DNA from: a virus
DNA length: 64,000 nt
Direction: 5' to 3' (one strand)
Virus record (IMG/VR): IMGVR_UViG_3300045988_168409
The translations under genes and the position numbers were made by a program. Shown here piece after piece: positions 2,081 to 52,371 of the stretch (positions are counted from its first letter, which is position 1; the number at the start of each line of letters is the position of its first letter). Under the pieces are notes generated by a model that saw only the letters and a program-made list of their open reading frames with translations, was not told where the DNA came from and ran no database searches.

Positions 2081-2111
2081 TATATGGCAAGCAGACGGCC
2101 AAAACGCAACC
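2081..2111 (-). promoter_or_regulatory. Conserved promoter-like element (copy 1 of 9)
   Basis: Gene orientation: GG TTGCGT tttggccgtctgcttgc CATATA GG; 23 nt upstream of ATG 2058. Confidence 0.6.
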
Positions 2112-2171
2112 ATTTCAATAAATAAATTTTATCACGCTTTCCGATAAAGCTCAAGTACAGGCGGTGAAAAA

Positions 2172-5100
2172 ATGGCAGATACCATTGTCCTGCGGACAGA
2201 ACTGCGAGACGGCGCCAACGTTCTGGCGCAGCTGACGCAAATCGACGCGAAGGCGAAAAGCCTGAGCGCCAAGCCGGTCACTATCGAGATCAAAGTTACC
2301 GGAGCGGCGGGGATCGAGAACCTGACACGTCAGCAGCTCGCGCTGGCTACGGCCCAGGAGCGCCGCCGCATAGCCGAAGCAAATCTTGCGGCAGCGCAGG
2401 AGCGGACGAAACAGACGGCAAAACAGTTGGCGGCGGCCAACACCCGTCTGCAGCAGGAGGTTCAGCGAAGCACCACTGAACAGGAGCGGCAGAAAACTAT
2501 CGGCGCAAAACTGGCGCTTCAGCAGGGGCAATCGGCGGCGGCCGCACAGCAGCATGCGAATGCGGAAGACCGTCTTACGAATAGCCTAAACAATGGTTCT
2601 CGCGCGGCAAAAAGCTTTGGGGATACCCTTCTCGGGTCAATAAAATCCCGCGCCATATCTGCCGCAATCAACCTTATTACTCGTTCCATCCGAGAAGCAG
2701 TTTCCACCATGAAAGAGGTGGACAGCGAACTCACCACGATCCAGAAGGTCACAGGGGCAAGCGACAGCTATATCGCCGGGCTTAACGACCGCGCTTACGA
2801 AACCGCGAGCAAATACGGCGTGGCGGCCAACGAGTTTCTGCAGAGCGTTGCCGAGTTCAGCCGCGCCGGTTACGGCGAGCTGGCGGAGGGGCTTGCCGAA
2901 GTTGCCACGAAAACGCAGCTCGTCGGCGATATCAATTCCGAGACGGCCAATAAAATGCTTATCGCCATGGACGCGGCGTACAAACTGGGCGGCTCCGTGG
3001 AGGCGCTGTCTCTCATTGTAGATCAGGCGAACGAGATCGACAACAACTATGCGACAAGCATCGAAAAACTGGCGAGCGGCATGCCTATCGTCGCCTCGGT
3101 AGCGGCGCAGGCACACATTACGCAGGAACAGCTTCTGGCCGCGCTCGGAACGATCACGGCGAAAACGCAGGTGTCCGGCAGCGAAGCGGCGCGCGCGTTC
3201 CGCGCCATCGTCCTCAACATCATGGGTGATACCACGACGGAGGTTGAGGAAGGCGTCACCGTAACAAAAGAAGAGATCCAGAGCCTCAGCGATGTTCTGG
3301 AAGTTTACGCGAGCGACGTTGTGGAAGCAGCGAGGGCGACCGGCGAGCTCGTCAATCCGATGGAAGCCATTGCCGCGCTTTCCAAGGCGATGAAAGAAGG
3401 CGCGCTGACGGAGCAGCAGCTCATGGAGATGCTGTCCGGGCTTGGCGGAAAGCTCCGAACCAACTCGCTCGTCGCGCTCGTTGAAGGGTTTGATACCTAC
3501 AAGAAGATGCTGGGGTCTCTGGGAGACGCTGCCGGAAGCGCGGACAACGAAGTGGGCACAATGCTCACAAGCTGGCAGTCCAAAGCCAATATCCTCAAAA
3601 ACACCTGGACAGATCTGGTTCAGACAGTTGCCGGGTCCGATAAGTTCAAAGCGTTTCTCGATGATGTCAACAGCGCTTTAAGTACATTAGTCGAGTTGTT
3701 TAGCGGAGACGATACAACGTCAGAAGACTTTCGCAGCGCCTGGCAGGAAGCAGCGAATGAACGCGACGCGCTTATAGCAAAGGGCGAGAAGTTGACGGAT
3801 CAGGAAGAACTCCGCCTTAACTATCTACGGGAACAAACAAAGGAACTGGCGCGGCAGGCGCTATATGCCGAAAGAGAAGAAATAAGAACACGGCTCGAGG
3901 ATCAAAGGGCGACTCCCGATTATGTCTGGATGAGCGCGGGTGCAGACGCGACAAACAAGAACACCCTGTTAAACCAGCTTGGGGCCTTAAATAGCGACTA
4001 CTACCAGACCGGCGCGAAAACTCTTTCACAGTATCGGGACGGGCTGAAAGCGCTTAGCGAGCAGTATCAAGGATACGCCACTGTCCTGGAAGAGGCACAG
4101 GACGCAGGGCTCAAGCTGAATCAGGCAGACGAACGAGCACTGTGGGCGTGGGAGCAGCTGCAAAGCGCCATTAGTACTCTCAACCATTTAACGGGAGAAT
4201 CAACAGAAGAAACCGAAACCAGCACGGACACTGCTTCCGACAATGCGGACGCAGTGGATAAACAGGCGGAGTCCTATGAATCGCTCTCTGACCGCGTAAA
4301 GGACGCGACCAGCGCGATAGACAGCTTTAAGAAGGCGGCGGCGTCCGATCAGGACGACGGATTTCAGGACATGGCGGACGCTTACGCGAAAACCATGGAG
4401 GAGATCGCCAACGGGCGCATCAGCAGCAACACGGCGCAGGCGGGCTATGGTCTGTTCTTATCTGATAAGGAGCGCGAAGCTCTCGAAAATGATCCGCAGA
4501 AAATGGCGGCATACATTCAGGGGCTTGAAGGGCTGAAAGCCATGCTCAGCGGCGGCGGAGAGGATGCCGGAGCCGGGTTTGCACAGTGGCTCTATAATGC
4601 GGCGGATGCGGAAGGAAAACTCCGCGACGAAAACGGAAAGCTGCTGGCGTCTTTTGAGAAAACGGACAGCGGGCTCAGCTTCACCGTGGAGAGTCTGCAG
4701 GATCTCGCCGACTACACCGGAGTTTCGGAGGACGTTATCCTATCCTGGGCGGAGGCCATGGGTGTCTACGGATCGGAAATCTACAACGCGGGCGATCAGG
4801 CACTCAAACTTGCCGAAGACGTAGGCGCGCTGACGAAGGCAGCAGACGGGACGCAAAATGTTGATCTTGACAAATTCCGCAAAGGCTTGAGCGAAGCCGG
4901 AAAAAGTCAGGAGGAAATCGAAGGGCTTGTTTCTACGCTTCAGAGCATCGATGGGATCACTTTCGAGGCGACAGAAAGCGCGCTCAATGAGGTATCCGAG
5001 TCCGTTGATTCATTGCCCGAAGATGTAAATATCAAGCTCATGGCCGATGCCGTACCAGCGCTGGGGGCTATTCAGGAAGTAGAATCCACATTGTCCGGCC

Positions 5101-15514: not shown

Positions 15515-16576
15515 TTAACGTGCCCGAGGCAATAATTTTCTGAGTTTTTCCACAGCGTTTTTCAGCGCAAAGAGCAGTGCGTTCACGTCATTCCGCGTTG
15601 TCTCCGGGCAGATGGAGATACGCACGGTCTCCAGCGCCTCTTTTTCCGACAATCCGCTGACAAGAAGCACACGGGACGGCTCCCTGCTTCCGGCGGAACA
15701 CGCGCTGCCGGCGGAACAGCAGACGCCCTGCGCATCGAGCAGGGGGAGAAGCTGCGCGGAAGGGATACCGTCGAACCGGATGGAGATAATATGCGGGGAG
15801 GCCGTCCATCCGTAGTCTTTCGCATTGATATGCCCGCCGGATATAGATGGAACGAGGTCTTCGATCGTTTGCCGTATCGCACTCATATGGCGCAGAGCCG
15901 GGTACATGTTCTCGGTACGATACGAAAGCGCGGCTGCCATGGCGGCGGCGAGCGCTACGGATGGGGTGCCGGGACGAACGCCTCCCTCCTGACCACCTCC
16001 GGCGAAGAGCGAGGAAATTCGCAGAGTATGTCGTCTGGCATAAATAAAGCCGATGCCCTGCGGTGCGCCAAACTTATGCCCCGCGGCGGTGAGACAGTCG
16101 CAATCCAGCCTTTGTACATCTACATAAGTCTGCCCGACCGCGGCAACGCCGTCCAAGTGCAAAAGGTCATAATTCGCGCGAGCTGCCGCAAGATACTCCG
16201 GCGATAGAATCTCGCCCGTTTCGTTATTGACATAAGGGGCAGACAAGCAAGGAAACTGTTGATAGGGTTTTTCACAGCCGACTGTTTCCCACACGGATGC
16301 ATGAGAGGTACTGCCGCGCACAATAGCCCCGTACTTCCGAAGAGCATGAACTGCGAGATTGTTTGCCTCCGTACCGCCAGAGCAAAAGTAAATCTCTTTC
16401 GGATCCGCGCGGATGCATGAAGCGATGATTTCGCGGGATTCTTCCAAAGACTTCTTTGCCGCTCTTCCCGCGGCGTGCGTGCTGTCGGGGTTTCCTTGCG
16501 GTGCCCGCCGAAACGCCTCTATAGCGCACGAAAGCGTCGGCGTAGACGCGGCGTGGTCGAAATAGTACATGGACAT
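15515..16576 (-). CDS. Cysteine desulfurase-like class V aminotransferase (NifS/IscS/DndA-like)
   Basis: 353 aa; ...FDHAASTP..., ...FCSGGTEANNLAV..., PLP-Lys context ...TAAGHKFGAPQGIGFIY..., Cys loop ...CCSAGSACSAGS... Confidence 0.85.
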   Translation of the reverse strand: MSMYYFDHAASTPTLSCAIEAFRRAPQGNPDSTHAAGRAAKKSLEESREIIASCIRADPKEIYFCSGGTEANNLAVHALRKYGAIVRGSTSHASVWETVGCEKPYQQFPCLSAPYVNNETGEILSPEYLAAARANYDLLHLDGVAAVGQTYVDVQRLDCDCLTAAGHKFGAPQGIGFIYARRHTLRISSLFAGGGQEGGVRPGTPSVALAAAMAAALSYRTENMYPALRHMSAIRQTIEDLVPSISGGHINAKDYGWTASPHIISIRFDGIPSAQLLPLLDAQGVCCSAGSACSAGSREPSRVLLVSGLSEKEALETVRISICPETTRNDVNALLFALKNAVEKLRKLLPRAR

Positions 16577-16596
16577 TACCTCCGTTAAAAACTGCG

Positions 16597-17556
16597 TCAG
16601 ACGGCGTGCAGGGAGCTCTGCGCGACCGGCGCATCAAGGATATCGCTGAACGTTTCCGCAAGGGCTGTCTTGGTGAGACGCTGCGCGTAAATGCGCGTCG
16701 TAGACGGCTGGGCATGGCCGAGGATTTCGGAAATGCTCTCGATGGGCGCGCCCTTTTCGAGCAGGAACGACGCGGAGGCGTGGCGCATGGCGTGGGTGCG
16801 GCAGGAAGCCTCTTCGCCGAGAATGGACGCGGTATAGTTTTTGATAAGCGTGGAGAGCTGCTGACGCTCCAAGCTCTTCCACGCGCCTGTGAGACGGTCA
16901 CAGCAGCCGAACAGGGGCTCGGTGTCCCCTGCGTCCGCCGGGCGAATACCGGAGCTCAGATACGCTCTGACGGCCTCCTGCGAAGCGGAGGGGAACGGGA
17001 CTACACGGGGTTTATCTCCCTTCGTTACGCGGGCGTACAGGGCCTTCTTATCCCAGAAAAGATCGGCGGGCGTGAGCGCACGCAGCTCAGAGTTGCGGAG
17101 ACCGCTCTGGAAGAGCAGCGTCACTTCGGCCTTCTCACGGAGCCAGGTATGCGGCTTGCGGGTATACACCGGCTCTTCGGCGTTGAGAAGCGCCGTGATC
17201 TGCTGCTCGTCCAGGATGTGGGAATATTCCTTCTTATGCGCTGCGGCGAGCTTGCGCTTGGGAGGACGGAGCTCATCCGGCACGGCATTTTCGCTGAAGA
17301 TGCGGATGGACACACCGTACTTGGAGAGCGCACGAAGATGCGTCAGGTACAGATCCGTTGTCACGATGGACCAGCTGCCGTCCTCTACGAACGCGACGAC
17401 CGACTGCGGGCAGAACTCAGAGAAGCCGTTCTTCTCCATGCTCTCGCGGAAGCGGCGGAACGTGCCGGTGTAGGCTTCGATGGACGCCTCCGTCCACTCG
17501 TTGCGCCGCATCTGCGCGGTGAACATTCTGACAACCTCATCGTAATTTTCAAACAT
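16597..17556 (-). CDS. Tyrosine recombinase, XerC/D-like (second recombinase in window)
   Basis: 319 aa; R (SGLRNSELRAL), H-x-x-R (HAMRHASAS), ...LGHAQPSTTRIYAQ catalytic Tyr; N-terminal SAM-like domain. Confidence 0.85.
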   Translation of the reverse strand: MFENYDEVVRMFTAQMRRNEWTEASIEAYTGTFRRFRESMEKNGFSEFCPQSVVAFVEDGSWSIVTTDLYLTHLRALSKYGVSIRIFSENAVPDELRPPKRKLAAAHKKEYSHILDEQQITALLNAEEPVYTRKPHTWLREKAEVTLLFQSGLRNSELRALTPADLFWDKKALYARVTKGDKPRVVPFPSASQEAVRAYLSSGIRPADAGDTEPLFGCCDRLTGAWKSLERQQLSTLIKNYTASILGEEASCRTHAMRHASASFLLEKGAPIESISEILGHAQPSTTRIYAQRLTKTALAETFSDILDAPVAQSSLHAV

Positions 17557-17576: not shown

Positions 17577-17882
17577 TTATGCTTTATATGCCGGGCAGAC
17601 AGGCGTTTTGCAACCGCCGCCGGAAGAAAAATTTTCCTCGGAGCCGCCGAACGAGAGCGCGACGATCTCCTTTTCCCGCGCGGCCATGTCTTCCGAAAGA
17701 TAACTGACGGTCGTTTCGCAGTATTCGCAGACGCGCTTTGCGTCTTCCGGGTCGAGAGGATGGTCGAGATCGTCGAGCGTGTAGAAGATCAGGTCGGAGA
17801 GCATCTGAAGAAGCCCTGCGGCGCGGCGGAAGGTGCGCTGATCGCGCTGGGTTTGGAGGAAAAGGGAAGCGGATTCGCTCAT
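17577..17882 (-). CDS. Hypothetical protein
   Basis: 101 aa from ATG 17882; its last 13 codons overlap the promoter-like element. Confidence 0.45.
   Translation of the reverse strand: MSESASLFLQTQRDQRTFRRAAGLLQMLSDLIFYTLDDLDHPLDPEDAKRVCEYCETTVSYLSEDMAAREKEIVALSFGGSEENFSSGGGCKTPVCPAYKA
17585..17615 (-). promoter_or_regulatory. Conserved promoter-like element (copy 2 of 9)
   Basis: GG TTGCAA aacgcctgtctgcccgg CATATA AAG; 28 nt before ATG 17556; leader identical to copy at 32443. Confidence 0.65.
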
Positions 17883-27158: not shown

Positions 27159-27189
27159 TATATGGCAATCAGGCGGGCATTTCGCAACC
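27159..27189 (-). promoter_or_regulatory. Conserved promoter-like element (copy 3 of 9)
   Basis: GG TTGCGA aatgcccgcctgattgc CATATA GGG. Confidence 0.6.
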
Positions 27190-27237: not shown

Positions 27238-27266
27238 TGCTGCGTTTGGTTTCTGTTTAATTCCGG

Positions 27267-31138: not shown

Positions 31139-31169
31139 TATATGTCAACGAAATGGGCAATTTGCAACT
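31139..31169 (-). promoter_or_regulatory. Conserved promoter-like element (copy 4 of 9)
   Basis: AG TTGCAA attgcccatttcgttga CATATA AAG; leader contains GCCCCGC/GCGGGGC hairpin. Confidence 0.55.
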
Positions 31170-32442: not shown

Positions 32443-32473
32443 TATATGCCGTCCAGACGGCCGTTTTGCAACC
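32443..32473 (-). promoter_or_regulatory. Conserved promoter-like element (copy 5 of 9)
   Basis: GG TTGCAA aacggccgtctggacgg CATATA AAG; leader CATATAAAGCATAAAGCAAAAGGAGGTCA identical to copy at 17585. Confidence 0.65.
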
Positions 32474-33397: not shown

Positions 33398-33428
33398 TAT
33401 ATGCCAGGCAGAGGCGCGTTTTGCAACC
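33398..33428 (-). promoter_or_regulatory. Conserved promoter-like element (copy 6 of 9)
   Basis: GG TTGCAA aacgcgcctctgcctgg CATATA GGG. Confidence 0.6.
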
Positions 33429-33718: not shown

Positions 33719-33982
33719 TCAAGCAAAAAGAAATGTCCCGTTTTTCTTATAACATTCATTCCAAAACGCGGCGGTTTCCTCCGCCTGTTTTTTACTGGGG
33801 AAAGCGTTTGCCGCCTTGAGCCCGCCAATGGCGGACAGAGCGGAAAAAATGTTGTCGTCCGAGCTGATCCGCAGAACGTCGGCATAATAGCCGGGGCAAT
33901 ACTCGTTGTTTTTCCTCTCCGAAAACGTCATACGGTTTTTGTCCTGCTCTGCCGTGTAGGCGATGTAAACGTAGCTCCGCAT
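33719..33982 (-). CDS. Hypothetical protein
   Basis: 87 aa from ATG 33982 (GAAAGGAA RBS). Confidence 0.5.
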   Translation of the reverse strand: MRSYVYIAYTAEQDKNRMTFSERKNNEYCPGYYADVLRISSDDNIFSALSAIGGLKAANAFPSKKQAEETAAFWNECYKKNGTFLFA

Positions 33983-34259
33983 GTCAATTCCTTTCTGCCC
34001 TCGTGACCTCCGGGGCGGGATATGTTTTACTGTCTCGCGGCCATGGCCGCCGGGTGCGCGTGTTGGTGTGCGATCGTGCCGGCGTCCCTGCGGCATGGCA
34101 CCGCCGGGCAAATTCGGCGGCTCCTGCGCGCGCCCGGCCCCCGTGAAATCGTTTTTCTTTTCGCGTGAGCGCGGGGGGGCGGCGCGGCTGGGCTGGGGCC
34201 GGCGGCTCTGGGCGCTGGGCCCGGCGGGCGGCCGGGGCGGCGGCGCTTGCTTTATATCT

Positions 34260-34290
34260 CATATGCCAACAACGGCGGCAAATTGCAACC
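34260..34290 (-). promoter_or_regulatory. Conserved promoter-like element (copy 7 of 9, variant CATATG)
   Basis: GG TTGCAA tttgccgccgttgttgg CATATG AGA; followed by a ~270-nt very GC-rich leader. Confidence 0.5.
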
Positions 34291-34298: not shown

Positions 34299-34331
34299 AA
34301 AAAATCCCCCGGCGGACGATCCCGCCGGGGG
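34299..34331 (-). terminator. Rho-independent terminator of the toxin operon
   Basis: CCCCCGGCGG / CCGCCGGGGG stem, T-run on minus strand. Confidence 0.75.
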
Positions 34332-34359: not shown

Positions 34360-34629
34360 TCAGCTGAACAAGTCGGAATGCGATCCGGTGCGGGCCAATA
34401 ACAGCGCGTTACCGTCCACGCGGTAGATCAACAACCAATCCGGGGAAACATGGCATTCCCGGAACCCGGAATAATTCCCCGTTAAATCGTGATCCCGGTT
34501 TTGTGCCGGGAGCGTCGCGGGCGCGCGTAGCGTGTCAATGACGGTTTGCAGCTTTGTTAGATCTAATTGACGTTTGGCGCATTGCCGCAAGTCGCGCTTA
34601 AAGCGGGAGGAATAGACAACCTCAAGCAC
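34360..34629 (-). CDS. yafQ: YafQ/RelE-family mRNA interferase toxin
   Basis: 89 aa from GTG 34629; ...DHDLTGNYSGFRECHVSPDWLLIYRVDGNALLLARTGSHSDLFS matches E. coli YafQ ...DHPLQGSWKGYRDAHVEPDWILIY...RTGTHAALF. Confidence 0.8.
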   Translation of the reverse strand: MLEVVYSSRFKRDLRQCAKRQLDLTKLQTVIDTLRAPATLPAQNRDHDLTGNYSGFRECHVSPDWLLIYRVDGNALLLARTGSHSDLFS

Positions 34630-34633
34630 CCTG

Positions 34634-34846
34634 TCAGCCCTCCAGAATCGACGCGAAAAGCGCCGACGTGTCGCCGCTAAAGCGCGTCCCGCCGCCGTTC
34701 GCAAGCTCGGCAATTGCGGCGGCTGTTTCCGCGTTCGGCGTTTCCGCGTCCGGCAGCGCGGCCCCCTGTAAAAAGAGGATCACGTTAAAAAGCCGCGTTT
34801 CCGGGATCTGGTCAATTAAGGTTTTCGCAATGTCGCGGTTACTCAT
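34634..34846 (-). CDS. Antitoxin-like protein (DinJ C-terminal-like neutralising segment, no RHH)
   Basis: 70 aa from ATG 34846 (GGAGGTG RBS); ...TPNAETAAAIAELANGGGTRFSGDTSALFASI resembles DinJ ...EPNQLTIQSIKNSEAGIDVHKAKDADDLFDKL. Confidence 0.55.
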   Translation of the reverse strand: MSNRDIAKTLIDQIPETRLFNVILFLQGAALPDAETPNAETAAAIAELANGGGTRFSGDTSALFASILEG

Positions 34847-35060
34847 TTTCAGCACCTCCAGACGTTTTGTTATTGTTTGCGTTTTTTTCCATAAAATCCG
34901 CCGCCGCCGCGGTAAAAACGGCGTTAGGCGTCGTTCCTGCCGAATAACACGCGCCTTTGAATTTTTCGGCGTCGTCTCGGCGCATCCGGCAACCTAATGT
35001 TGTCATATTCGCCGCATCCCATTTATTATTCGCACGGCGGCGGCTTTCGCTGACGGGCAT
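34839..35060 (-). CDS. Ribbon-helix-helix regulator heading the toxin operon
   Basis: 73 aa from ATG 35060 (AAAGGGGGTGG RBS); ...TLGCRMRRDDAEKFKGACYSAGTTPNAVFTAAAADFM. Confidence 0.55.
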   Translation of the reverse strand: MPVSESRRRANNKWDAANMTTLGCRMRRDDAEKFKGACYSAGTTPNAVFTAAAADFMEKNANNNKTSGGAENE

Positions 35061-35113
35061 TTTTCCACCCCCTTTCATGGATGATTATATCAATAATAAC
35101 GTGTACTGTCAAG

Positions 35114-35193
35114 CCGTGTAATTATACACAATTTAACAGTGCATATTTTGTTAAGTTTGCCGGCTTGAAAAACACGATTAAACCGTGTATATT
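35114..35193. promoter_or_regulatory. Divergent promoter/operator region
   Basis: Plus: TTGAAA (35165-70) -17- TATATT (35188-93). Minus: TGTG-TATAAT (-10 = 35121-26). Palindrome GTGTA-atta-TACAC 35116-35129 and half-site CCGTGTA 35183-89. Confidence 0.5.
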
Positions 35194-36969: not shown

Positions 36970-37108
36970 CTTTTTCTTCTTTGCTTGTTTCTTCTTTTTA
37001 TAAGTTATTTATATAGCTATAAGTATTTATCACTATATATATAATTATATATCTATATATATATATATATTTATGTATTTATATCTCTATCTATCTATCT
37101 ATATATAG
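36970..37108. repeat. AT-rich low-complexity block with (TA)n and (CTAT)4 microsatellites
   Basis: (TA) run 37054-37070; CTATCTATCTATCTAT 37087-37102; embedded in ~60% GC DNA. Confidence 0.9.
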
Positions 37109-37336: not shown

Positions 37337-37471
37337 AACTGCTCTTAATATCAATTAAGACATGTTTAAAGCCCCCCCTACTTTCAAAATTGAACGCTAA
37401 AAACCGGTTGCGTAACCCCGCGCGGCACTTCCTCCACCCCAACCATTCAGCCCACATCAATAATAAAAAGG

Positions 37472-37514
37472 AGTCCTGGCTAACGTTCTCATTGAGCGTT
37501 TCCGGGACTTTTTT
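37472..37514 (+). terminator. Terminator-like long hairpin with T6
   Basis: AGTCCTGG...CCGGGACT with inner AACG/CGTT pairs, then TTTTTT; no protein gene upstream on this strand. Confidence 0.4.
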
Positions 37515-37570: not shown

Positions 37571-37601
37571 GGTTGCAATTTAAGGCTGTGATTGCCATAT
37601 A
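37571..37601 (+). promoter_or_regulatory. Conserved promoter-like element (copy 8 of 9)
   Basis: GG TTGCAA tttaaggctgtgattgc CATATA GGG, directly before AGGAGG and ORF 37611. Confidence 0.6.
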
Positions 37602-37610: not shown

Positions 37611-37883
37611 GTGATGACGGCTATGTTTATTTTAGCCGCCCAGGTTGAGGTAGAGAACTACACTGGGGCGTGCGATATCAGTGGTGAGCACGGTGCTGGT
37701 GGGTTGTTGGTCCCTTGCGGCATCGAGGTTCAGCGGAGCGGTGACAGATGCTTAATTCTGTTAAGGGACGCTTCAGGCGTTATTTTTGGAAAGATTACTG
37801 GCGTAAAGCGGAGCAACCTCCGGGAGGAACCCGAAGGGTGGCTGCATCGGGATCGAAGCATACCTGATGATAAGGCGCGGTAA
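37611..37883 (+). CDS. Hypothetical ORF in the same frame as the methyltransferase, ended by a single TAA
   Basis: 90 aa (GTG 37611/ATG 37614/ATG 37623); no recognisable motif; TAA 37881-83. Confidence 0.35.
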   Translation: MMTAMFILAAQVEVENYTGACDISGEHGAGGLLVPCGIEVQRSGDRCLILLRDASGVIFGKITGVKRSNLREEPEGWLHRDRSIPDDKAR

Positions 37884-39473
37884 TGCTGATGGCATTCTGA
37901 AAGAGAGGCGATTTTCATTAAACACTTAGGAGATATCACGAAGATCAACGGCGCGGAGATCGCGCCTGTCTGGTGCATCACCGGCGGGAGTCCGTGCCAA
38001 GACCTTAGCATCGCCGGGAAACGTGCGGGTCTTGCCGGCGCTCGTTCCGGCTTGTACATGGAACAGATACGAATCGTCAAGGAGTTGAGAGAGCATGACA
38101 GAAGCATTGGACGGACAGGTGAGCTTGTTCGACCTCGGTATATGGTCTGGGAAAATGTGCCCGGAGCGTTCAGCAGCAACTTCAAGGATGGATTCGGAGA
38201 CTTCGGAGCCGTGCTGGAAGAAGCTGTACGCATCGCAGAACCGGGATTTTCTCTTCCTCGACTGCCGGACAAGCAGAAGTGGACGAAAGCCGGAGGAATG
38301 CTCGGTGACGGATGGAGCGTCGCATGGAGAACGCATGACGCCCAATACTGGGGAGTTCCACAGCGCAGACGGCGTATCAGCATGGTGGTCGATTTTAACG
38401 GATCCACTGCAGGGGATATCCTCTTTGAACGTTTCGGAGGAGCCGAATCTTCTGGTGTACACGAAGTTGTCGCAGATTCTGGAAGAGCGTCCGGACCCGA
38501 AGTACAACCTGACGCCGAAAGCGTGCGCCGGGATCCTCCGGAGGGCGGAACGGCGCGGGAAGAAACTGCCGGAGGCGCTGAAAACTGTTCTGCTTATGCA
38601 GTCCGCATCCGGGGGGGATGTGACGGCGGAGGAAAAGGCGCGTTAGTTCAGACGGAGAAGAGCGGGACGCTTGGAACCGGAAACGACCAGACGATCTTCT
38701 GCCTACAGGGCAACGGAATAGACCGTGCCGATACCGCCGGATGCAATGGCAAGGGATGGAAAGAGGATATAAGCTACACCCTCAATACGATTGACCGACC
38801 GGCGGTTTGCGCAGCCACAGTGCTGGACATGTCACACGCATGTGACGTTATCCGGGATTGCGGCGGCATATCTCCATCATTGCAAGCGAGAATGGGAACC
38901 GGCGGGAATCAAATCCCTCTTACATATTCGCTTCAACGAACAGATGCCTATCGTCAAAGCAATGTAGGCTGCACATGTTCTGCCAGAGATTACAAGTCAG
39001 CAACGGATCTTGTAATCAGCATCGACGACGAGAAAAACGCTTACATAGACCAATTCGGCACGTTGAAAGCCCATGCGAGCGGCGGGACACAACAGCACGT
39101 TATGGAGCGCATGGTCGTTCGTCGGCTTACCCCATTGGAATGGACACGACTTCAAGGGTATCCGGACGGATGGGTCGGTATCGGCGACTGGACAGACGAG
39201 AAAGGCCGTGTACACAAGGAAGCGGACGCGCCGAAGTACAAGGCGCTCGGCAACTCCATCGCGCTCCCATTCTGGCGCTGGATGTTCGGTAGAATGGCGG
39301 CGTATCTTCCGGAGGGCGCGACGCTTGGTAGCCTGTTTGATGGGATCGGCGGCTTCCCGCTCTGCTGGGAAAGCATCCACGGAAAAGGAACGGCGGTATG
39401 GGCTTCGGAGATCGAGCCGTTTGCCATCGCCGTAACAAAGCATCATTTCGGAGGTAACTCAGATGTCGGATAA
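37884..39473 (+). CDS. C5 cytosine DNA methyltransferase, circularly permuted (motifs IV-X then I-II); start codon unresolved
   Basis: GGSPCQDLS (PCQ 37992-38000), ENVPG (38151-), QRRRR (38361-75), GNS (39249-57), then in frame TLGSLFDGIGGF...VWASEIEP...VTKHHF (39321-39449); frame open from 37884, first ATG/GTG/TTG is TTG 38052, downstream of the catalytic Cys. Confidence 0.7.
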
Positions 39474-39987
39474 AACAAAACTTCCTTACGGTCGGCTTAC
39501 TTTCGATGGCAACTTCTGCGACATTGCCAAATGCCGCGAAGAGCGCTGGGGCAAATACTGCCCGGACGGCGCGTGCAGCCAGCGCAAGGTGTGGGAGCGG
39601 CTGAAAGAGTACGAGGATACTACAATGTCCCCGACCGACGTGCAGGAATACAAAAAGTTCGAGGACGAGCTTATTGCCTCCGGGATGACTTTTAACGAAT
39701 TGCTCGCAAGGGCCAGTACAGAACTGCGCTTCACGAGCGTGAAAGATCGGCTTCCGAGCAAAGACTGCCGCTGCCTCTGCGCGCAGGAATCTATGCTTAA
39801 AAGCGGCTACGTTTATTACGAGCAGTTGTATTACCACGCGAGTTCGTTTGTGAACTCTTGGGAAGAAGAGGCGACGCCCGGCTTCTATGGGGATGGAGAA
39901 GACTTCGAGTACCTTGTGGAGGACGTTCTACTGTGGGCAGAGCTTCCCGACAATATCAACACACTCGTTTTGGAGGCCGAACCATGA
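39463..39987 (+). CDS. DUF551-like protein
   Basis: 174 aa; ...FTSVKDRLPSKD... ...WAELPD. Confidence 0.5.
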   Translation: MSDKTKLPYGRLTFDGNFCDIAKCREERWGKYCPDGACSQRKVWERLKEYEDTTMSPTDVQEYKKFEDELIASGMTFNELLARASTELRFTSVKDRLPSKDCRCLCAQESMLKSGYVYYEQLYYHASSFVNSWEEEATPGFYGDGEDFEYLVEDVLLWAELPDNINTLVLEAEP

Positions 39988-40142
39988 CAAGAAAGGATTT
40001 TTCCACGATCCAGCGCATGCTCGGCAAGATTCAGGGAATTTCGCTTGGAACAGGAGCCGACGTAGAGGGTGCGCTCCTCGACGCAGTGGAAACAATCGAC
40101 GCGGTTCTTGACCGAGAAATTTTGACGGAGGATGAAAAATGA
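39984..40142 (+). CDS. Small hypothetical protein
   Basis: 52 aa from ATG 39984, ATGA overlaps on both sides. Confidence 0.4.
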   Translation: MTRKDFSTIQRMLGKIQGISLGTGADVEGALLDAVETIDAVLDREILTEDEK

Positions 40143-40294
40143 ACGAAAAACAGGAAAAGAAGCGCCGGTACAATCTGCGCCTTGAGTACATCGCGCATTT
40201 CAACAAGTGGCTGGACAGCGAGCCGCCCCGGTGGCGCTTTATCCGCTGGCGCAAGTGGAAGAAAAGCCGCCCAGTATGGGAGGACGCGGCATGA
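40139..40294 (+). CDS. Small basic hypothetical protein
   Basis: 51 aa, not in track; MNEKQEKKRRYNLRLEYIAHFNKWLDSEPPRWRFIRWRKWKKSRPVWEDAA. Confidence 0.35.
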   Translation: MNEKQEKKRRYNLRLEYIAHFNKWLDSEPPRWRFIRWRKWKKSRPVWEDAA

Positions 40295-40611
40295 CCTACG
40301 AAGAAGCAAAACGAATCCTTCACCCGGACACTACGCGGGAAGCCCTTGCCGAGATCGGGTTCAAAGGCAAGGAGAAATTGCAGGAGGCGGTAGACGAGGC
40401 TTGCCTTATGGCGTGTGAGGCGCTGGACAAGCAGATACCGGAGCCACCGGTTGTGTTAAACCAAAAAGACTCTAAGCACTTTAAGCACTTTTGCTGCATG
40501 GCTTGTGGAACGAGATTTGTGTCCGAAATTAATGGGGAGCTCTGTGCTGGGAGAAAAACCCGCTTCTGCCCCGATTGCGGACAGGCGATTGATTGGGAGG
40601 AACGGAAATGA
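40291..40611 (+). CDS. Zinc-ribbon hypothetical protein
   Basis: 106 aa from ATG 40291; CCMACG...FCPDCG. Confidence 0.45.
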   Translation: MTYEEAKRILHPDTTREALAEIGFKGKEKLQEAVDEACLMACEALDKQIPEPPVVLNQKDSKHFKHFCCMACGTRFVSEINGELCAGRKTRFCPDCGQAIDWEERK

Positions 40612-40787
40612 TGAAACTTATCCCGTGCCCAACCTGTGGTGGGACAACGCTGGCACTGTATCGCGCCGATGGAAATAGAAAGTTTTACATTGAGTGCCTC
40701 CGATGTCATCGGCGCGGCAAGACAAAAATGTTCGAGTTTAGAGCCATAAGAGCGTGGAACAGGAGGGATGACAATGGAGGAGCTTAA
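40608..40787 (+). CDS. Lar-family restriction-alleviation-like protein
   Basis: 59 aa; MMKLIPCPTCGG...ECLRC...AIRAWNRR. Confidence 0.55.
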   Translation: MMKLIPCPTCGGTTLALYRADGNRKFYIECLRCHRRGKTKMFEFRAIRAWNRRDDNGGA

Positions 40788-41007
40788 ACCTTGCCCGTTC
40801 TGCGGGAAACCCGTGTCGATTGTCTACAACTCACTTGACAGGGTGTTCAAAGTTTATCACACATACGGCGATGACGAATACAACTGCTGCATCATCGACC
40901 CGATACCGATTGATGCAGTGTCACTCAAAGATGCGTCTGATGCATGGAACAGGAGGTATAACAATGAATGTTGTGGAAAAGGCGTCAAGAAAAATGCGGT
41001 TGATTGA
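40774..41007 (+). CDS. Lar-family restriction-alleviation-like protein (second copy)
   Basis: 77 aa; MEELKPCPFCGK...ASDAWNRR. Confidence 0.55.
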   Translation: MEELKPCPFCGKPVSIVYNSLDRVFKVYHTYGDDEYNCCIIDPIPIDAVSLKDASDAWNRRYNNECCGKGVKKNAVD

Positions 41008-41635
41008 CGCAAACGCACTCATAAAAGAGGCTAATGCCGAGGGCGCTTATGGCTATGTAGATGCAGAGCAAATTGCAAATGCTCCCACTATTGATTTCGA
41101 AAAAATCTCAGATGGATACCACACTTTCGCAGACTTGTATGAACAAAGGCTTATTTTGTCTGCCGCTCTTGCCAAAAACAATCCGCATGCATGGAAAAGC
41201 AAGCGGCATGAGGACGGCAGCGTTCCTTTCGGCGGGGGATGGTTCATTATGGGCTTTGATACCGACGAAGGATGTTATACATACCACTATGAGCTGAAAG
41301 ACTGGGATCTGTTTCAGTGCAAAGAATTAGACAAGGGAAAGCCGTGGGATGGTCACACGTCAAAGGATGTCCGTAGATTGCTTTCAATTCCTGCCGCCGT
41401 CTCTGTCCCGCAATGGATCAGCGTCAAGGACAGACTTCCGGAAAATGGCGAGCACGTCCTCATCTGGTACGAATACTACCGCTATGGCTCTTATAACCGG
41501 ATGTATACGACCTACGAGATCGCCTACCAGTATAATGGCCATTGGACAGGTGCGGGGGATTCACTGGGGCAGAAAGCGCGTGTGTTTGCGTGGATGCCGC
41601 TTCCCGAACCGCCGAAAGGAGAAAAGGATGGCTAA
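40964..41635 (+). CDS. DUF551-like protein
   Basis: 223 aa from ATG 40964 (AGGAGG RBS); ...WISVKDRLPENGEHVLIW... ...WMPLPEPP. Confidence 0.5.
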   Translation: MNVVEKASRKMRLIDANALIKEANAEGAYGYVDAEQIANAPTIDFEKISDGYHTFADLYEQRLILSAALAKNNPHAWKSKRHEDGSVPFGGGWFIMGFDTDEGCYTYHYELKDWDLFQCKELDKGKPWDGHTSKDVRRLLSIPAAVSVPQWISVKDRLPENGEHVLIWYEYYRYGSYNRMYTTYEIAYQYNGHWTGAGDSLGQKARVFAWMPLPEPPKGEKDG

Positions 41636-41864
41636 AAGGTTCTTCCATTGCTGCCTGGATGTGCGGGGCGGCATTAGAAACGCGAAAGACCTGAAAGGAT
41701 GCATAACGGTAGACGGTCACACGCTGTTCACGGTGAAAGAAGTCAAATCATTTTTGCAGGATCATCTTAATGCCGGACATGAAGTTTTGCCGATGGGAGA
41801 CTGCGACAATTTCGACTATAAAACTGGCTGCCGTGGCCATTATGTGGAGGACGGTGCGGAATGA
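41628..41864 (+). CDS. Hypothetical protein
   Basis: 78 aa from ATG 41628. Confidence 0.45.
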   Translation: MAKRFFHCCLDVRGGIRNAKDLKGCITVDGHTLFTVKEVKSFLQDHLNAGHEVLPMGDCDNFDYKTGCRGHYVEDGAE

Positions 41865-41983
41865 ACGACTGTGAATCCTGCATCCACTACCCACCGAGCG
41901 CTTCGGACGGAAAGCCCTGCTGCTTCTGCGATCCGATCGACCCGCTGCTGAATTGCCATCAGAGAAAGGATGACACAGAATGA
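41861..41983 (+). CDS. Small Cys-rich peptide
   Basis: 40 aa, not in track; MNDCESCIHYPP...CCFCDP. Confidence 0.3.
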   Translation: MNDCESCIHYPPSASDGKPCCFCDPIDPLLNCHQRKDDTE

Positions 41984-42171
41984 ACAAAGAGCGGAAACGT
42001 GTGTGCTGCAACTGCGGCAACTGCATCAGATATCCAACAAAGGACGGAATCCGGTGTCGGTGCGCAATAGACGGTCGTCACATTGGCTATTTGCAGTGCT
42101 TTGAACACTGGTGCAGACGGTGGAAAAGAGAAAGAAAGTGGGACGGTGAAGAAAATGGAAAGAACGCTTGA
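41980..42171 (+). CDS. Cys-rich hypothetical protein
   Basis: 63 aa; CCNCGNC... Confidence 0.4.
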   Translation: MNKERKRVCCNCGNCIRYPTKDGIRCRCAIDGRHIGYLQCFEHWCRRWKRERKWDGEENGKNA

Positions 42172-42325
42172 TTTGCCAAACAATGCCGTAGCAATGACGG
42201 TTTCTGTGTTGCGCGATGACGGCACTTGTTTTAATCTCGGCATAAAATGCTTCGGAACATCGGAGTTGCAGAGTGGCAAAATACTCCGATTTACCGACGA
42301 CAAAGGAGGCGGCAGCGATGCATAA
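42155..42325 (+). CDS. Small hypothetical protein
   Basis: 56 aa from ATG 42155. Confidence 0.35.
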   Translation: MERTLDLPNNAVAMTVSVLRDDGTCFNLGIKCFGTSELQSGKILRFTDDKGGGSDA

Positions 42326-42382
42326 ACCCTGCTACGGCAAATGCCATCGCTGCGTGTGGCGGTGGAATGGGGGGTGTTCGGA

Positions 42383-42634
42383 ATGGCAAGGCTGATTGAT
42401 GCAAAAGCCGAAGAATCGCAGGTCAAGACCGCATTCAAATACAATCCGGTCATTATGGGGCAGTTCTTACGTTGGATAAGGATGCAGGACACAGTTGCCG
42501 CCGTCCCCGTCTCCGAACTTCTTTCACTCCGCGCCAACCTGTACGAAGATAATCTTATCACAATGCGAGGACTGCGCGATCTCAACATGCTGATCGCCAA
42601 ATACGAAGGAGGGAAAGACCATGCGGTTGGTTGA
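42383..42634 (+). CDS. Hypothetical protein, paralog 1 of a tandem trio
   Basis: 83 aa; MARLIDA...TMRGLRDLNMLIAKYEGGKDHA. Confidence 0.5.
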   Translation: MARLIDAKAEESQVKTAFKYNPVIMGQFLRWIRMQDTVAAVPVSELLSLRANLYEDNLITMRGLRDLNMLIAKYEGGKDHAVG

Positions 42635-42863
42635 CGCTGACGATCTGCTTGCTGAATACGACCGGCAGCACGAAGGAGAGCCGGGGAAAGCCCGAAAACT
42701 GATAGAGGATGCGCCCACCGTTGCCGCTGTTCCCGTGTCCAAAATCCTCGCCTTGCGCGACGCTCTCTACGAAGCCGATGCTGTCACAATGCGAGGACTG
42801 CGCAATCTCAATATGCTGATCGGCAAATATGAAGGAGGGAAAGACCATGCGCTTGATTGACGC
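42494..42863 (+). repeat. Imperfect ~144-bp direct repeat (42494-42637 and 42720-42863)
   Basis: Both copies run from GTTGCCGC(C/T)GT to GGGAAAGACCATGCG(G/C)TTG(G/A)TTGACGC. Confidence 0.8.
42621..42860 (+). CDS. Hypothetical protein, paralog 2
   Basis: 79 aa; MRLVDA...TMRGLRNLNMLIGKYEGGKDHA. Confidence 0.5.
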   Translation: MRLVDADDLLAEYDRQHEGEPGKARKLIEDAPTVAAVPVSKILALRDALYEADAVTMRGLRNLNMLIGKYEGGKDHALD

Positions 42864-43152
42864 AGAAAGCCCGCAGAACGGAATATACGTTTCCGATCTC
42901 GTAATCGAGGAAATGAAAAAGATTCCGACGGTCGATATTGACCGCCCCACCCGCAGCCAGTTTAAGCGCATGGCGGTGCAGCTTGGGTATGAGGCGGTGA
43001 TTTATTGCCGCGAGTGCAAAGAACATAGACTTTTTAATGGGCGCGATATGTGCGCAAAAAACGCAACAATCCTTGACGGGCACGAAGTTGGGCTGAGAGC
43101 AACACGCGCGGATTTCTATTGCGCCGACGGAGAAAGGAGAACCGATGAGTAA
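42847..43152 (+). CDS. Hypothetical protein, paralog 3 (N-terminus only shared)
   Basis: 101 aa; MRLIDAESP... Confidence 0.5.
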   Translation: MRLIDAESPQNGIYVSDLVIEEMKKIPTVDIDRPTRSQFKRMAVQLGYEAVIYCRECKEHRLFNGRDMCAKNATILDGHEVGLRATRADFYCADGERRTDE

Positions 43153-43720
43153 AGCAGTAATGTTAAGCATCCAGCCGCGCTGGTGCGAGCTGATTGCCGC
43201 TGGGGAAAAGACGATGGAAGTGCGCAAGACACGCCCGAAGTTGGAAACGCCGTTTAAGGTGTATGTCTACTGCTCGAAGCCGCGATTTGAACACGAGGAT
43301 TTCTTTGCGCTGGTGGGAAAACAAGGCTTTCATGGCGGCGGGAAAGTTATTGGTGAGTTGGTGTGCGACCGAATTGACTGGCTGGCGCGTGTTGGCTTCA
43401 CCAGACGTGGCGGAGAACCGGAATATCGAATTGCAAATAACGGAGATTGGGAATCTCCAATCGATCGACTCCTCGAAGAGGCGTGCTTAACAGAGGAGGA
43501 GCTCTATGCGTATTTGGGCGGAAACCCAGGGTTCGGCTGGCATATCTCCGATCTGAAAATCTACGACAAGCCGAAAGAAATATCTGAGTTCAAGAAACAT
43601 AGCAGAGAATGTTACTTTGACAATCTCGGCATGGCAACGCCGAAGTGTTCAGAATGTACGCAGTGTAATCTCACGAGACCGCCGCAGAGCTATTGTTTTG
43701 TGGAGGCTCTTCAAACATGA
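43145..43720 (+). CDS. ASCH (PUA-like) domain protein
   Basis: 191 aa; MSKAVMLSIQPRWCELIAAGEKTMEVRKT... Confidence 0.65.
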   Translation: MSKAVMLSIQPRWCELIAAGEKTMEVRKTRPKLETPFKVYVYCSKPRFEHEDFFALVGKQGFHGGGKVIGELVCDRIDWLARVGFTRRGGEPEYRIANNGDWESPIDRLLEEACLTEEELYAYLGGNPGFGWHISDLKIYDKPKEISEFKKHSRECYFDNLGMATPKCSECTQCNLTRPPQSYCFVEALQT

Positions 43721-44205
43721 CGCCAGAGGAACTGTATGAAGAAAATCAGTCGCTTGTTTGGTTTACTTTGAAAAAGTATTTCCCGAGTCTTAAAGTTGAC
43801 GAAGATGTTCTACAAGTGTGCAGGATAGGGCTATGGCAGGCGTGTGCGGAATACTATCCGGAAAAAGGCGCTAAATTCTCAACATTTGCGGTCAAGGGCA
43901 TTTTCATGGCGGTGTGCCGATATATTCGAGATTGCTGCAAGCCGCAGATCGCGGCACTGCCGTTAGATGATTTCGTTTCGCCGAATAGCCGATTACTTGT
44001 CGAGGAAACTGTCGGGAAGGAGGACGAGCACCCGGCGCTCGAAGACATGATGAAGCGGCTTACGCCCACGCAACGGCTTATGGTTACTATGCGCAGCGCT
44101 GAGCTGTCTGTTTATGATATTGGCGACGCACTTGGATGTACGCCACAGTACGTTTCGCAGGAACTTGGGCGCGCCAGAAAGACAATCGAGAAATTTTTAA
44201 AATAG
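43717..44205 (+). CDS. Phage sigma-70-family factor (regions 2 and 4 only)
   Basis: 162 aa from ATG 43717; ...LQVCRIGLWQACAEYYPEKGAKFSTFAVKGIFMAVCRYIRD... and ...LSVYDIGDALGCTPQYVSQELGRARKTI. Confidence 0.65.
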   Translation: MTPEELYEENQSLVWFTLKKYFPSLKVDEDVLQVCRIGLWQACAEYYPEKGAKFSTFAVKGIFMAVCRYIRDCCKPQIAALPLDDFVSPNSRLLVEETVGKEDEHPALEDMMKRLTPTQRLMVTMRSAELSVYDIGDALGCTPQYVSQELGRARKTIEKFLK

Positions 44206-48154: not shown

Positions 48155-48348
48155 CTCGAAAAGACTGCTCTTTTTGTCGCTGCCGGGCATGCAATAACCA
48201 CCGGCAGCAGAAATGCACGGCCTGTGCATCCGATCCATGCTCCGCCTGCTATCGCGGTTCGATGAAAGACAGCGATAAAGTACGAAACTGCCAATCATTC
48301 ATTCGGTCGTGGGTGGATAAGAAATACTTCAACCAAGATCGCCTCTGA
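48151..48348 (+). CDS. Cys-rich hypothetical protein
   Basis: 65 aa from ATG 48151; CSFCRCRAC...CTAC...CSAC. Confidence 0.45.
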   Translation: MTRKDCSFCRCRACNNHRQQKCTACASDPCSACYRGSMKDSDKVRNCQSFIRSWVDKKYFNQDRL

Positions 48349-48690
48349 GTTACGGCAGGGCTTTTTACCTTTCACCTGCCGGCTCTTTTGTATACCTCCT
48401 GAACTGCTGAGGTTAAAACCGCTATACAGCCAGCCGCATGGTTTCACGTCCTTTTGGTGCGGGTCCTTCTCCCTTTTTGCTATAAGCTGCAGCCCGTAAG
48501 AAGCAGCTCGCTTCGGCGCTCCGGTCTGGAATGGCGGCAGGGCACTTATATCCTCCGATAGTTTAACAGTAAAACGCCGTTCGAGCGGGCGGGATGTTCT
48601 TTGTCGCGTTACGCAAAAGGCGAGACGGAACGGAAGATGCGGGTGCAACTCCCGTAAGGAGGAGACTGCAACAGAATAATCGGAGGAAGC

Positions 48691-51950: not shown

Positions 51951-52277
51951 ATGACACCCATCGTAAAAGGCACTACGGCGGTCTTCTGGGGCCGTGTGTC
52001 GGGCAAGGACGCAACTTACAGAGAGCTGGGCAACAATCGCCGTGTTGCCAACTTCTCTCTGCTGTACGACTCGCTGCCGGGAGAAGACGGCGGACGCCGA
52101 AAGGGCGTTTACATCAACTGCTCGGCATGGGGTGAAGTTGCCGATTTCGCGCAGAATCTGGAGCGCGGAGACACGGTTCTCTGCGCGGGCTATCTCGTCA
52201 AAGACGAGTACCGCAGCCACAAAGAGAATGCCGATATCTACCAGCTCACCTGCGATTTCATTTCCGTAATGCACTGA
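51951..52277 (+). CDS. Short OB-fold SSB-like protein
   Basis: 108 aa; position after RecT; ...NFSLLYDS...YINCSAWGEVADFA...GDTVLCAGYL. Confidence 0.55.
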   Translation: MTPIVKGTTAVFWGRVSGKDATYRELGNNRRVANFSLLYDSLPGEDGGRRKGVYINCSAWGEVADFAQNLERGDTVLCAGYLVKDEYRSHKENADIYQLTCDFISVMH

Positions 52278-52340
52278 CGCGCATGGGAGGAAGAGAGCGC
52301 CCTCTTTCAGGGCGCTTCTTCGCCAAAAAGTTTTAACAGC

Positions 52341-52371
52341 GGTTGCAAAACGCGCCGCTGCTTGCCATATA
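52341..52371 (+). promoter_or_regulatory. Conserved promoter-like element (copy 9 of 9)
   Basis: GG TTGCAA aacgcgccgctgcttgc CATATA GGG, 48 nt before TTG 52420. Confidence 0.6.

Follow-up and report, generated by a model that had tools for sequence, protein, structure and literature searches.

Repeated promoter units and phage-encoded sigma factors have been described in several settings that each resemble, in part, the one analyzed here: a 64,000-nucleotide (nt) stretch of viral DNA (IMG/VR record IMGVR_UViG_3300045988_168409; the whole stretch is called the window below) in which a two-box element, GG-TTGCAA-N17-CATATA, recurs nine times and which also encodes a sigma factor of 162 amino acids. 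The late promoters of phage SPO1 follow, as one passage of the SPO1 literature gives it, the consensus CGTTAGA(N17-19)GATATT (PMC3601020). The likeness to SPO1 lies in a small phage protein of the sigma-70 family (gp28 and gp33/gp34 in SPO1) together with two-part promoters of normal spacing whose hexamers are unlike those of the host SigA class. The SPO1 late boxes loosely resemble the element as well (xGTTxxA and xATATx), and the consensus SigA promoters that serve the earliest SPO1 genes have counterparts in the SigA promoters at the switch regions of the present phage. The differences are nonetheless substantial. SPO1 is a large lytic Bacillus phage, whereas the window comes from a temperate, integrase-carrying phage of gut Oscillospiraceae with a genome of ~70 kb and one sigma gene. 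Furthermore, the elements precede accessory, DNA-modification and replication units and not a defined middle or late set, and their dependence on the sigma factor is something that we infer.

A second relative is the promoter-early stem-loop element (PeSL) of T4-type phages, which combines an A/T tract, a polyG/polyC stem-loop, a promoter and a Shine-Dalgarno sequence and lies mostly upstream of ORFans in variable regions, with few copies in core modules (PMC2839356; PMC4122927). The nine elements share with PeSLs a composite anatomy, their repetition, a bias toward accessory regions and a small number of copies in replication and virion modules. A gene swap at one of the elements (site 9), with its junction between the -10 box and the start codon, is a further likeness. 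PeSLs, however, number about 50 per T4-type genome against nine here, and both the type of phage and the phylum of the host differ. The promoter of a PeSL is also of the strong host sigma-70 consensus type, which the -10 box of the nine elements is not. In addition, recombination junctions are not significantly concentrated at the elements of the present phage, with 5 of 77 clusters of mosaic breakpoints within 100 nt of a site against 2.5 expected (P ~0.11).

The third group comprises the sporulation-like (SigF/SigG-like) sigma factors of Bacillota-infecting phages, which have been proposed to act on host sporulation genes (PMC9429907; PMC10294663). The sigma factor in the window resembles these proteins in that its region 2 is closest to SigB/F/G and its nearest cultured homologues are annotated as sigma F/G-like. 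It differs in its short length (162 amino acids), the absence of region 3, a region 4 of the extracytoplasmic function (ECF) type and scores far below the curated SigF and SigG cut-offs; moreover, the matching promoter set lies on the phage itself. The protein is therefore related to the sporulation-like group of phage sigma factors and is not a member of it. The kind of system, a phage-specific promoter class that probably works with a phage sigma factor, is known already, and the present case is a new example. A promoter class with nine members offers a concrete handle on the transcription programs of temperate phages in gut Oscillospiraceae, an abundant and mostly uncultured group.

Nine intergenic copies of a fixed two-box element

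A pattern search of the window returned nine copies of the element with the positions, strands, sequences and 17-nt spacing that a sequence-only reading of the DNA had reported. The copies and the units behind them are as follows (ORF, open reading frame).

Site 1, 2081..2111, minus strand: GG TTGCGT N17 CATATA; heads a gene for 109 amino acids (1729-2058, minus strand)
Site 2, 17585..17615, minus strand: GG TTGCAA N17 CATATA; 28 nt before a tyrosine recombinase gene (16597-17556), then a class-V aminotransferase gene (15515-16570)
Site 3, 27159..27189, minus strand: GG TTGCGA N17 CATATA; 109 nt before an ORF of 96 amino acids (26759-27049), then an N6/N4 DNA methylase gene (26029-26865)
Site 4, 31139..31169, minus strand: AG TTGCAA N17 CATATA; 42 nt before an ORF of 46 codons (30956-31096; not the long ORF), then an ORF of 239 amino acids and a GT2 glycosyltransferase gene (29152-30114)
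Site 5, 32443..32473, minus strand: GG TTGCAA N17 CATATA; 28 nt before the gene of an LPD25-domain protein of 407 amino acids (31191-32414)
Site 6, 33398..33428, minus strand: GG TTGCAA N17 CATATA; 41 nt before an ORF of 141 amino acids (32931-33356)
Site 7, 34260..34290, minus strand: GG TTGCAA N17 CATATG; a G+C-rich leader of 278 nt, then an ORF of 87 amino acids (33719-33982)
Site 8, 37571..37601, plus strand: GG TTGCAA N17 CATATA; heads a 6.6-kb operon (37623-44205) with a C5 methylase gene, anti-restriction-type genes and, last, the sigma gene
Site 9, 52341..52371, plus strand: GG TTGCAA N17 CATATA; 48 nt before an ORF of 441 amino acids (52420-53745), then a DnaB helicase gene (53739-55082)

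The pattern TTGC-N19-CATAT has nine matches in the 64-kb window, against a mean of 0.50 and a maximum of 3 in 100 dinucleotide-preserving shuffles. With a weight matrix of 64 columns, the nine sites score 53-76 bits, values that are circular because the matrix was trained on these same sites; the rest of the window, for which the sequence-only reading had proposed such a scan, nowhere reaches 12 bits, and the maximum in shuffled sequence is 2.4. A relaxed search of the window that permitted one mismatch in the first box and spacings of 16-18 nt found no tenth or degenerate member. The nine elements thus form a discrete class, with nothing between them and the background in the window.

Read in the direction of the downstream gene, the order of parts is an A/T tract (~10-30 nt upstream of the element), GG-TTGCAA as the -35 box, a G+C-rich spacer of 17 nt, G(C/G)-CATATA as the -10 box, RRG and a purine-rich start region in which TAAAG is frequent at the expected position of the transcription start. 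The conservation beyond the boxes that had been claimed earlier (the GG, the G(C/G) before the -10 box and parts farther out) is real, and the RRG, the upstream A/T tract and the frequent TAAAG are to be added to it. Spacing between TTGCAA and CATATA is exactly 17 nt in all nine copies and in all variants found in relatives. The -10 box reads CATATA or CATATG in every copy and variant, with C at -12 and either A or G at -7, where T never occurs. Deviations are confined to sites 1 (TTGCGT), 3 (TTGCGA), 4 (AG for GG) and 7 (CATATG). Any two copies are identical at 18-30 of 33 positions, and their likeness stops at the borders of an element of 33-45 nt, except for sites 2 and 5, which have 21 further downstream nt in common. 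Because the likeness ends at the element edges, we regard the copies as a functional motif and not as pieces of a longer repeat. Literature searches on the two hexamers brought up no match to the consensus, GGTTGCAA-N17-CATATA, whose phages form an uncultivated lineage. The consensus sequences of sigma-54, ECF, SigB and FliA-type promoters and, for the spacer, the Neisseria DNA uptake sequence were compared by eye, and none fits all copies.

All nine elements lie in intergenic gaps and are co-oriented with the next gene. The start codons downstream of sites 1 to 9 follow CATATA after 22, 28, 109, 42, 28, 41, 278, 21 and 48 nt and are preceded by Shine-Dalgarno sequences; the earlier estimate of ORF starts 10-110 nt away, with one leader of ~270 nt, is borne out by this measured range of 21-278 nt. 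The genes behind the elements encode DNA methylases, a recombinase, a protein with a polyvalent-protein domain, a glycosyltransferase, replication proteins, small ORFans and the sigma operon. The description of the copies as lying in three arms did not hold, as the genes form four transcription blocks instead and site 1 stands antisense within the tail operon. Stable hairpins with U-rich tails were predicted immediately upstream of sites 3, 6, 7 and 8 (z -2.5 to -6.6), and the following structures precede the elements.

27205-27238: terminator hairpin just upstream of site 3, z -5.75
32631-32656: terminator 160 nt upstream of site 5
33446-33475: terminator hairpin directly upstream of site 6, z -4.1
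34306-34331: terminator hairpin directly upstream of site 7
37467-37514: terminator hairpin upstream of site 8, followed by six U, z -6.6
52290-52321: hairpin upstream of site 9, z -2.3, lacking a good U tract

The search found no hairpin upstream of sites 1, 2 and 4. The presence of a terminator just upstream of most sites suggests that most elements begin a fresh, insulated transcription unit.

Several of these units have features of their own. The leader that follows site 7 (33983-34259, minus strand) has an extremely high content of G+C and of C and varies from one relative to another. Its predicted fold is no more stable than that of shuffled sequence (z ~0), and Rfam recognized no family in it or anywhere else in the window. 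The site-2 unit (15515-17556, minus strand) pairs a second tyrosine recombinase (319 amino acids) with a class-V, cysteine-desulfurase-like aminotransferase, an unusual combination that sits at the end of the phage accessory arm. Ahead of site 8, an almost pure A/T tract of ~65 nt (37040-37105; TATATATCTATATATATATATATATTTATG...CTATCTATCTATCTATATATAG) is located between early plus-strand genes and the terminators and is conserved in relatives.

Conservation of the boxes and contrast with SigA-type promoters

Orthologous copies from related phages were sorted into 12 groups with at least two variants each. With the counts shifted slightly by one group, which is a chance match in a host gene of L009, the variable positions were 0 of 24 in the GG, 3 of 72 in the -35 box, 2 of 72 in the -10 box and 30 of 204 in the spacer; in the flanks they were 97 of 480 (40 nt upstream) and 84 of 360 (positions +11 to +40). 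The site-4 orthologues keep both boxes and have changed about half of the spacer. A fixed two-box layout of 17 bp, constrained boxes, an upstream A/T tract, a terminator before and a ribosome-binding site after the element together make up the signature of a sigma-70-family promoter, and the assignment of the nine elements to this family, predicted from these features, is well supported.

The same phage has perfect or near-perfect promoters of the SigA type at three switch-like regions.

35112, minus strand: TTGACA-17-TATAAT with TG, one of a divergent pair within 35084..35193
35165, plus strand: TTGAAA-17-TATATT, the other member of the divergent pair within 35084..35193
47171, plus strand: TTGACT-17-TATAAT, before a cro-like gene
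47284, minus strand: TTGACA-17-TACGAT, before a cI-like gene
18728, plus strand: 12 of 12 consensus positions
19074, minus strand: 10 of 12 consensus positions

Of the ordinary promoters that had been named elsewhere in the window, those at 18728 and 47171 indeed have the SigA consensus; the one at 28617 amounts only to TTGCGC-17-TATAAT, on the minus strand. At the nine sites, no register with a spacing of 16-18 nt yields TAnnnT, and a promoter scan that required TAnnnT reported none of the nine. Neither the palindromic operator of the cI/cro region nor the repeats of the switch region at 35.1 kb occur at the nine sites. This second switch-like region (35084-35193 and 34360-35060) has the divergent SigA promoters and repeated CGTGTA(A/T) motifs, and its minus side drives two small ORFs and a YafQ/ParE-type toxin gene.

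As a control for chance occurrence in DNA of matching composition, we searched 1.29 Mb of chromosomal DNA from 80 Oscillospiraceae genomes (58% G+C). All of it comes from one chromosomal neighborhood, so that the sample controls well for chance frequency and weakly for an alternative-sigma regulon of the host. The full motif, TTGCAA-N17-CATATA, was absent from this DNA, against eight occurrences of TTGACA-N17-TATAAT, and the 18 matches to a loose version of the motif had none of the extra features. A strict motif scan of IMG/VR returned matches only in relatives of this phage, plus one chance match. Among the first 120 stretches listed by a loose scan, several copies per contig were found only in this lineage, and the other matches were single, scattered and chance-like. 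One single, good look-alike is carried by an unrelated viral contig of 10.7 kb with 57.5% G+C (L174, 8974-9004), where a T-run precedes GGTTGCAA-N17-GCCATATAGGG; it could be a chance match or a promoter type that extends outside the lineage. The geometry, the intergenic co-orientation, the terminators, the conservation of the boxes, the consensus SigA promoters elsewhere in the phage and the absence from host-family DNA give good support to the earlier proposal of a promoter-like class that stands apart from ordinary sigma-70 promoters.

The phage sigma factor as candidate reader

The only transcription-machinery gene found in the phage is the gene that ends the site-8 operon.

43717..44205, plus strand: sigma factor of 162 amino acids that has only regions 2 and 4; the candidate for reading the nine promoters

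The protein matched the Pfam families Sigma70_r2 (5.5e-10) and Sigma70_r4_2 (1.5e-6) and the model TIGR02937 (4e-18). Its best specific NCBIfam subfamily is SigB/F/G, a match that involves region 2 and falls far below the cut-off of the model. The cultured phages with the nearest homologues are large Bacillus phages, whose 'sigma F/G-like' proteins show 25-42% identity over part of the length. In an alignment to group-1 sigma factors, the -10-reading segment of the phage protein (kfstFavKGifMavCryird) faces kfstYatWWirQaiTraiad of SigA, so that K, G, M and C occupy the equivalents of W433, W434, Q437 and T440, which we take, from established E. coli genetics, to be -10-reading positions. Genetic work on the E. 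coli sigma factor has shown that Q437 and T440 specify the T at -12. Given that the equivalents of the tryptophan pair, Q437 and T440 are all replaced, a preference of the phage sigma factor for TATAAT is not to be expected.

Apart from the nine-copy element, no non-consensus promoter-like motif is over-represented in the genome, and sigma gene and motif are both present in every full-length relative. A scan of the GTDB species representatives for the phage sigma factor gave no match. We tentatively favor, as a reading that falls a little short of probable, that the nine elements are recognized by the host core RNA polymerase carrying the phage sigma factor and thereby form a separate regulon. 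The sequence-only reading had left the choice between a phage regulator and the phage sigma factor; sequence alone cannot separate the two, and the indirect evidence leans to the sigma factor. Part of this evidence is that a host island at the attachment site holds both a copy of the sigma gene and a motif-driven gene, and that distant homologues of the sigma factor occur in phages with a different repeated two-part element (both described below). In the mechanism that we propose, the nine elements would be a second, phage-specific class of sigma-70-family promoters, which the SigA holoenzyme of the host would not use efficiently and which the host core RNA polymerase would recognize once joined by the phage sigma factor. 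The regulon would stand apart from the SigA-dependent switch promoters, and site 8 would place the sigma gene under positive feedback as soon as read-through or weak use by SigA had supplied some of the protein. If the pairing of sigma factor and promoters is true, the timing and regulation of accessory genes (methylases, anti-restriction, glycosyltransferase) would become predictable across a widespread lineage, and the pair could serve as an orthogonal sigma-promoter system for genetic tools in Clostridia. It would also be a case of a host that keeps a phage sigma factor and its cognate promoter at an attachment site.

More distant homologues of the sigma factor (~32% identity) are encoded by unrelated one-strand phages that have a repeated intergenic two-part element of their own, CGCGAAAAAA-N10-TTAYGR. 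This element is present in four copies in 20 kb, with none expected (L130, 902, 8539, 10521 and 17535, plus strand; also L128, ~3203 and 11465), and is absent from the window. It often precedes a hairpin with a T run and then a ribosome-binding site, and, as judged by eye, the gene of the sigma homologue in these phages is closely preceded by two tRNA-like sequences. The TTGCAA-CATATA motif, in turn, was absent from the limited DNA available of phages with distant sigma homologues (L011, L128-L130 and L249-L252). In L011 (2835-3130), whose sigma homologue is 36-39% identical, TTTGCAACA repeats are clustered beside the integrase gene; they are probably arm-type integrase sites, unrelated to the nine-copy motif.

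Alternative explanations

Several observations weigh against recognition by the phage sigma factor. The motif-bearing relatives are all of one lineage, and the helices with which their sigma factors read DNA are nearly identical. The sigma gene is the last of the site-8 operon, with a strong terminator upstream of site 8, so that strict dependence on the sigma factor would need a bootstrap in the form of read-through or weak SigA use. The units also mix moron-like or lysogenic-conversion-type genes (glycosyltransferase, methylases) with replication genes and do not fall into a single clear time class. In the closest outgroup phages, the sigma homologue lies between the replication and the structural genes, which is the usual place of a late activator. 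Finally, a single-copy A-rich tract (CCGAAAAAAAGAAAAAATTTATAAAT) and a stem of 8 bp of G/C with a 20-nt loop precede the structural genes of the window at 55571-55678. It is possible that this stretch is a terminator and late-promoter region and that it, and not the nine elements, is the real target of the sigma factor; no member of the motif lies before the structural genes, where a CATATT at 55638 has no matching -35 box. A rival view is that the nine elements are promoters of the host SigA holoenzyme, with or without a phage activator or repressor at the extra conserved positions (GG, G(C/G), RRG and TAAAG), and that the sigma factor acts elsewhere, for example on a late promoter at ~55.6 kb. 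TTGCAA matches TTGACA at four of six positions, 17 nt is the optimum spacing for SigA, the A/T tract is like an UP element, and TTGCAA-N17-TAnnnT occurs 34 times in the host-family DNA, which makes TTGCAA an acceptable -35 box there. The bootstrapping problem of the sigma operon disappears as well, and both the position of the outgroup sigma homologue and the candidate late region at 55571-55678 find a place. CATATA, however, matches TATAAT at only three of six positions, and the near-invariant T at -7 is missing in all copies and orthologous variants of a phage that uses consensus SigA promoters elsewhere. Moreover, Pfam, NCBIfam and PHROGs revealed no activator candidate in the early operons, and the absence of the cI/cro operator sequence from the nine sites also counts against a SigA-based scheme. 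On balance we consider SigA-dependent promoters unlikely, although a real contender; they would amount to an unusual -10 usage in this bacterial family.

An alternative sigma factor of the host would tie the phage genes to the state of the host. Oscillospiraceae include spore-formers, and in Bacillus the sigma E, K and G classes have -10 regions that begin with CATA. Sigma K, however, needs TA three bases further on, the -35 regions of sporulation sigma factors differ, and the remainder of the element does not fit their consensus sequences. The genome of SPO1 has been suggested to hold sigK-like promoters (PMC9429907). A literature search on sporulation-sigma consensus strings returned nothing usable, the 1.29 Mb of host-family DNA, all from one neighborhood, holds no copy of the motif, and a host sigma factor would leave that of the phage unexplained; we therefore attach only a slight probability to this explanation. 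A different kind of proposal is that the uniformity of the elements stems mainly from a PeSL-like role as homologous linkers for the shuffling of cassettes, with promoter activity secondary. Their anatomy matches that of PeSLs, the gene downstream of site 9 has been swapped in relatives with the junction a few nt after the -10 box and before the start codon, and the site-1 cassette (1728-2170) is found in two genomic contexts. The breakpoint counts given above do not support such a role, however, and the most mosaic region of the genome (38-43 kb) has no copies. With common sequence of only ~33-45 nt and pairwise identities of 18-30 of 33 positions, a linker function is improbable as the main source of the uniformity. 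That the elements are not promoters at all, and arose by chance or serve a partition, packaging or recombination protein, is hardly credible. TTGCAA is palindromic, and the unrelated phage L011 has TTGCAAC repeats by its integrase gene, but chance is excluded, and the strict co-orientation with the downstream gene between a terminator and a ribosome-binding site, the fixed 17-nt spacing and the conservation of the boxes while the spacer varies do not agree with such a function. Recognition by the phage sigma factor thus remains the explanation that we tentatively prefer.

The site-1 cassette and the host island at the attachment site

The gene behind site 1 is a real one and runs antisense, with the tail chaperone gene on one side and the tape-measure gene on the other. 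Its product of 109 amino acids matches a chromosomal homologue with 42% identity (E 3e-14), the DNA of which can no longer be aligned to it. The G+C content of the gene at third codon positions is 0.50, compared with 0.7-0.8 in phage genes. A cassette of 443 bp with the promoter and the gene (1728-2170) is 91% identical to L043 2678-3122, which is host flank just outside the left attachment site (attL), and the cassette occupies the tail position in all relatives examined. Since it occurs both in the tail operon and in the host flank, the cassette is a self-contained unit that has moved between phage and chromosome. We also considered a location of site 1 inside a frameshifted extension of the tail chaperone and rejected it, as the plus-strand frames have the character of a strand opposite to a coding one, and the ORF on the minus strand is matched by a homologous protein. 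Among the nine, site 1 alone fits the description of a moron (a concept discussed in PMC2839356): a self-contained promoter-gene unit with conserved neighbors, on the opposite strand and of atypical composition. As with morons, it is inserted between two conserved genes (here a YomN-like chaperone gene and the tape-measure gene), with a copy in the host chromosome as well. In lambdoid and HK97-like phages, the promoters of morons are regarded as unrelated to one another and of the host type; the site-1 unit, in contrast, shares one phage-wide promoter type with eight other units, replication genes included.

In prophage-free host chromosomes, an island of 2.3 kb is located between plsY and the tRNA-Gln gene (L009 8170-10500; also L138 8281-10489, L010 and L039 19377-21116). 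A full copy of the motif (GGTTGCGA-N17-CATATA) heads a gene for 106 amino acids in this island, which also carries an AT-rich DUF3267 gene and an ORF of 114/119 amino acids partly homologous to positions 42847-43152 of the window. The sigma gene is present in an intact copy, ~91% identical to that of the phage, and the differences fall at synonymous sites (ratio of nonsynonymous to synonymous rates, dN/dS, 0.05-0.17), which marks the copy as being under purifying selection. An island with a copy of the sigma gene and a motif-driven gene is the most unusual aspect of the case. It could be that the sigma factor and the promoter are a private pair in transcription and that the host has adopted this pair for itself, with cross-talk between resident and incoming copies, a circuit to which we give little credence at present. 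If it exists, the island sigma factor could fire the promoters of an incoming phage, or the phage sigma factor could fire the island gene, and the island would then work as a phage sensor, as an exclusion system or to prime the incoming phage, which would go beyond a plain phage regulon. A second CATATATGGTAGA fragment, which has no -35 box, lies before the DUF3267 gene of the island.

Genome organization, host and relatives

The phage is temperate, has a genome of ~66-73 kb and is commonly met in human gut metagenomes. Most of this genome is in the window, with the genes arranged as follows.

55.6-64 kb and 1-15.3 kb, plus strand: structural and tail operon, with portal, SPbeta-like tube and chaperone, and tape measure
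15.5-35.1 kb, minus strand: accessory block, with tyrosine recombinase, aminotransferase, BRO, HNH, N6 methylase, GT2 glycosyltransferase, LPD25 protein and YafQ/ParE toxin
35.2-44.2 kb, plus strand: accessory block that ends with the sigma factor of 162 amino acids
44388-44438: core of the phage attachment site (attP), which has the sigma gene on one side and the integrase gene on the other and is identical to the 3' part of the tRNA-Gln (CTG) gene of the host
44.5-55.6 kb: integrase, cI-like and cro-like genes, then YqaJ, RecT, SSB, the protein of 441 amino acids, DnaB and resolvase

Searches of GenBank phages with megablast and with the portal protein (tblastn) gave no close relative in culture. 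The host is an uncultured Oscillospiraceae species, in which the GlyRS gene beside the attachment site is 99% identical to that of the metagenome-assembled genome CAVEQS01 and 88% identical to that of 'Firmicutes bacterium CAG:124'. The tRNA-Gln gene of the host lies at L009 10702-10775. L043 shows attL, with the order plsY, the 109-amino-acid cassette, the core and then the integrase gene, and L039 has a second integrase-bearing element in tandem at the same tRNA-Gln site.

Related phages are 85-99% identical overall and mosaic. Mosaicism is strongest in the plus-strand accessory block at 38000-43700, where dozens of breakpoint clusters fall and genes for Dam, Mom-like, Lar-like, DUF551 and WDGH proteins come and go. 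In addition, an IS605 OrfB/TnpB (Cas12f-like) gene is inserted between small early genes and yqaJ in some relatives (L038 6397-7404, L039, L046 and L047); the window is without this gene at the corresponding position (~48155-48369).

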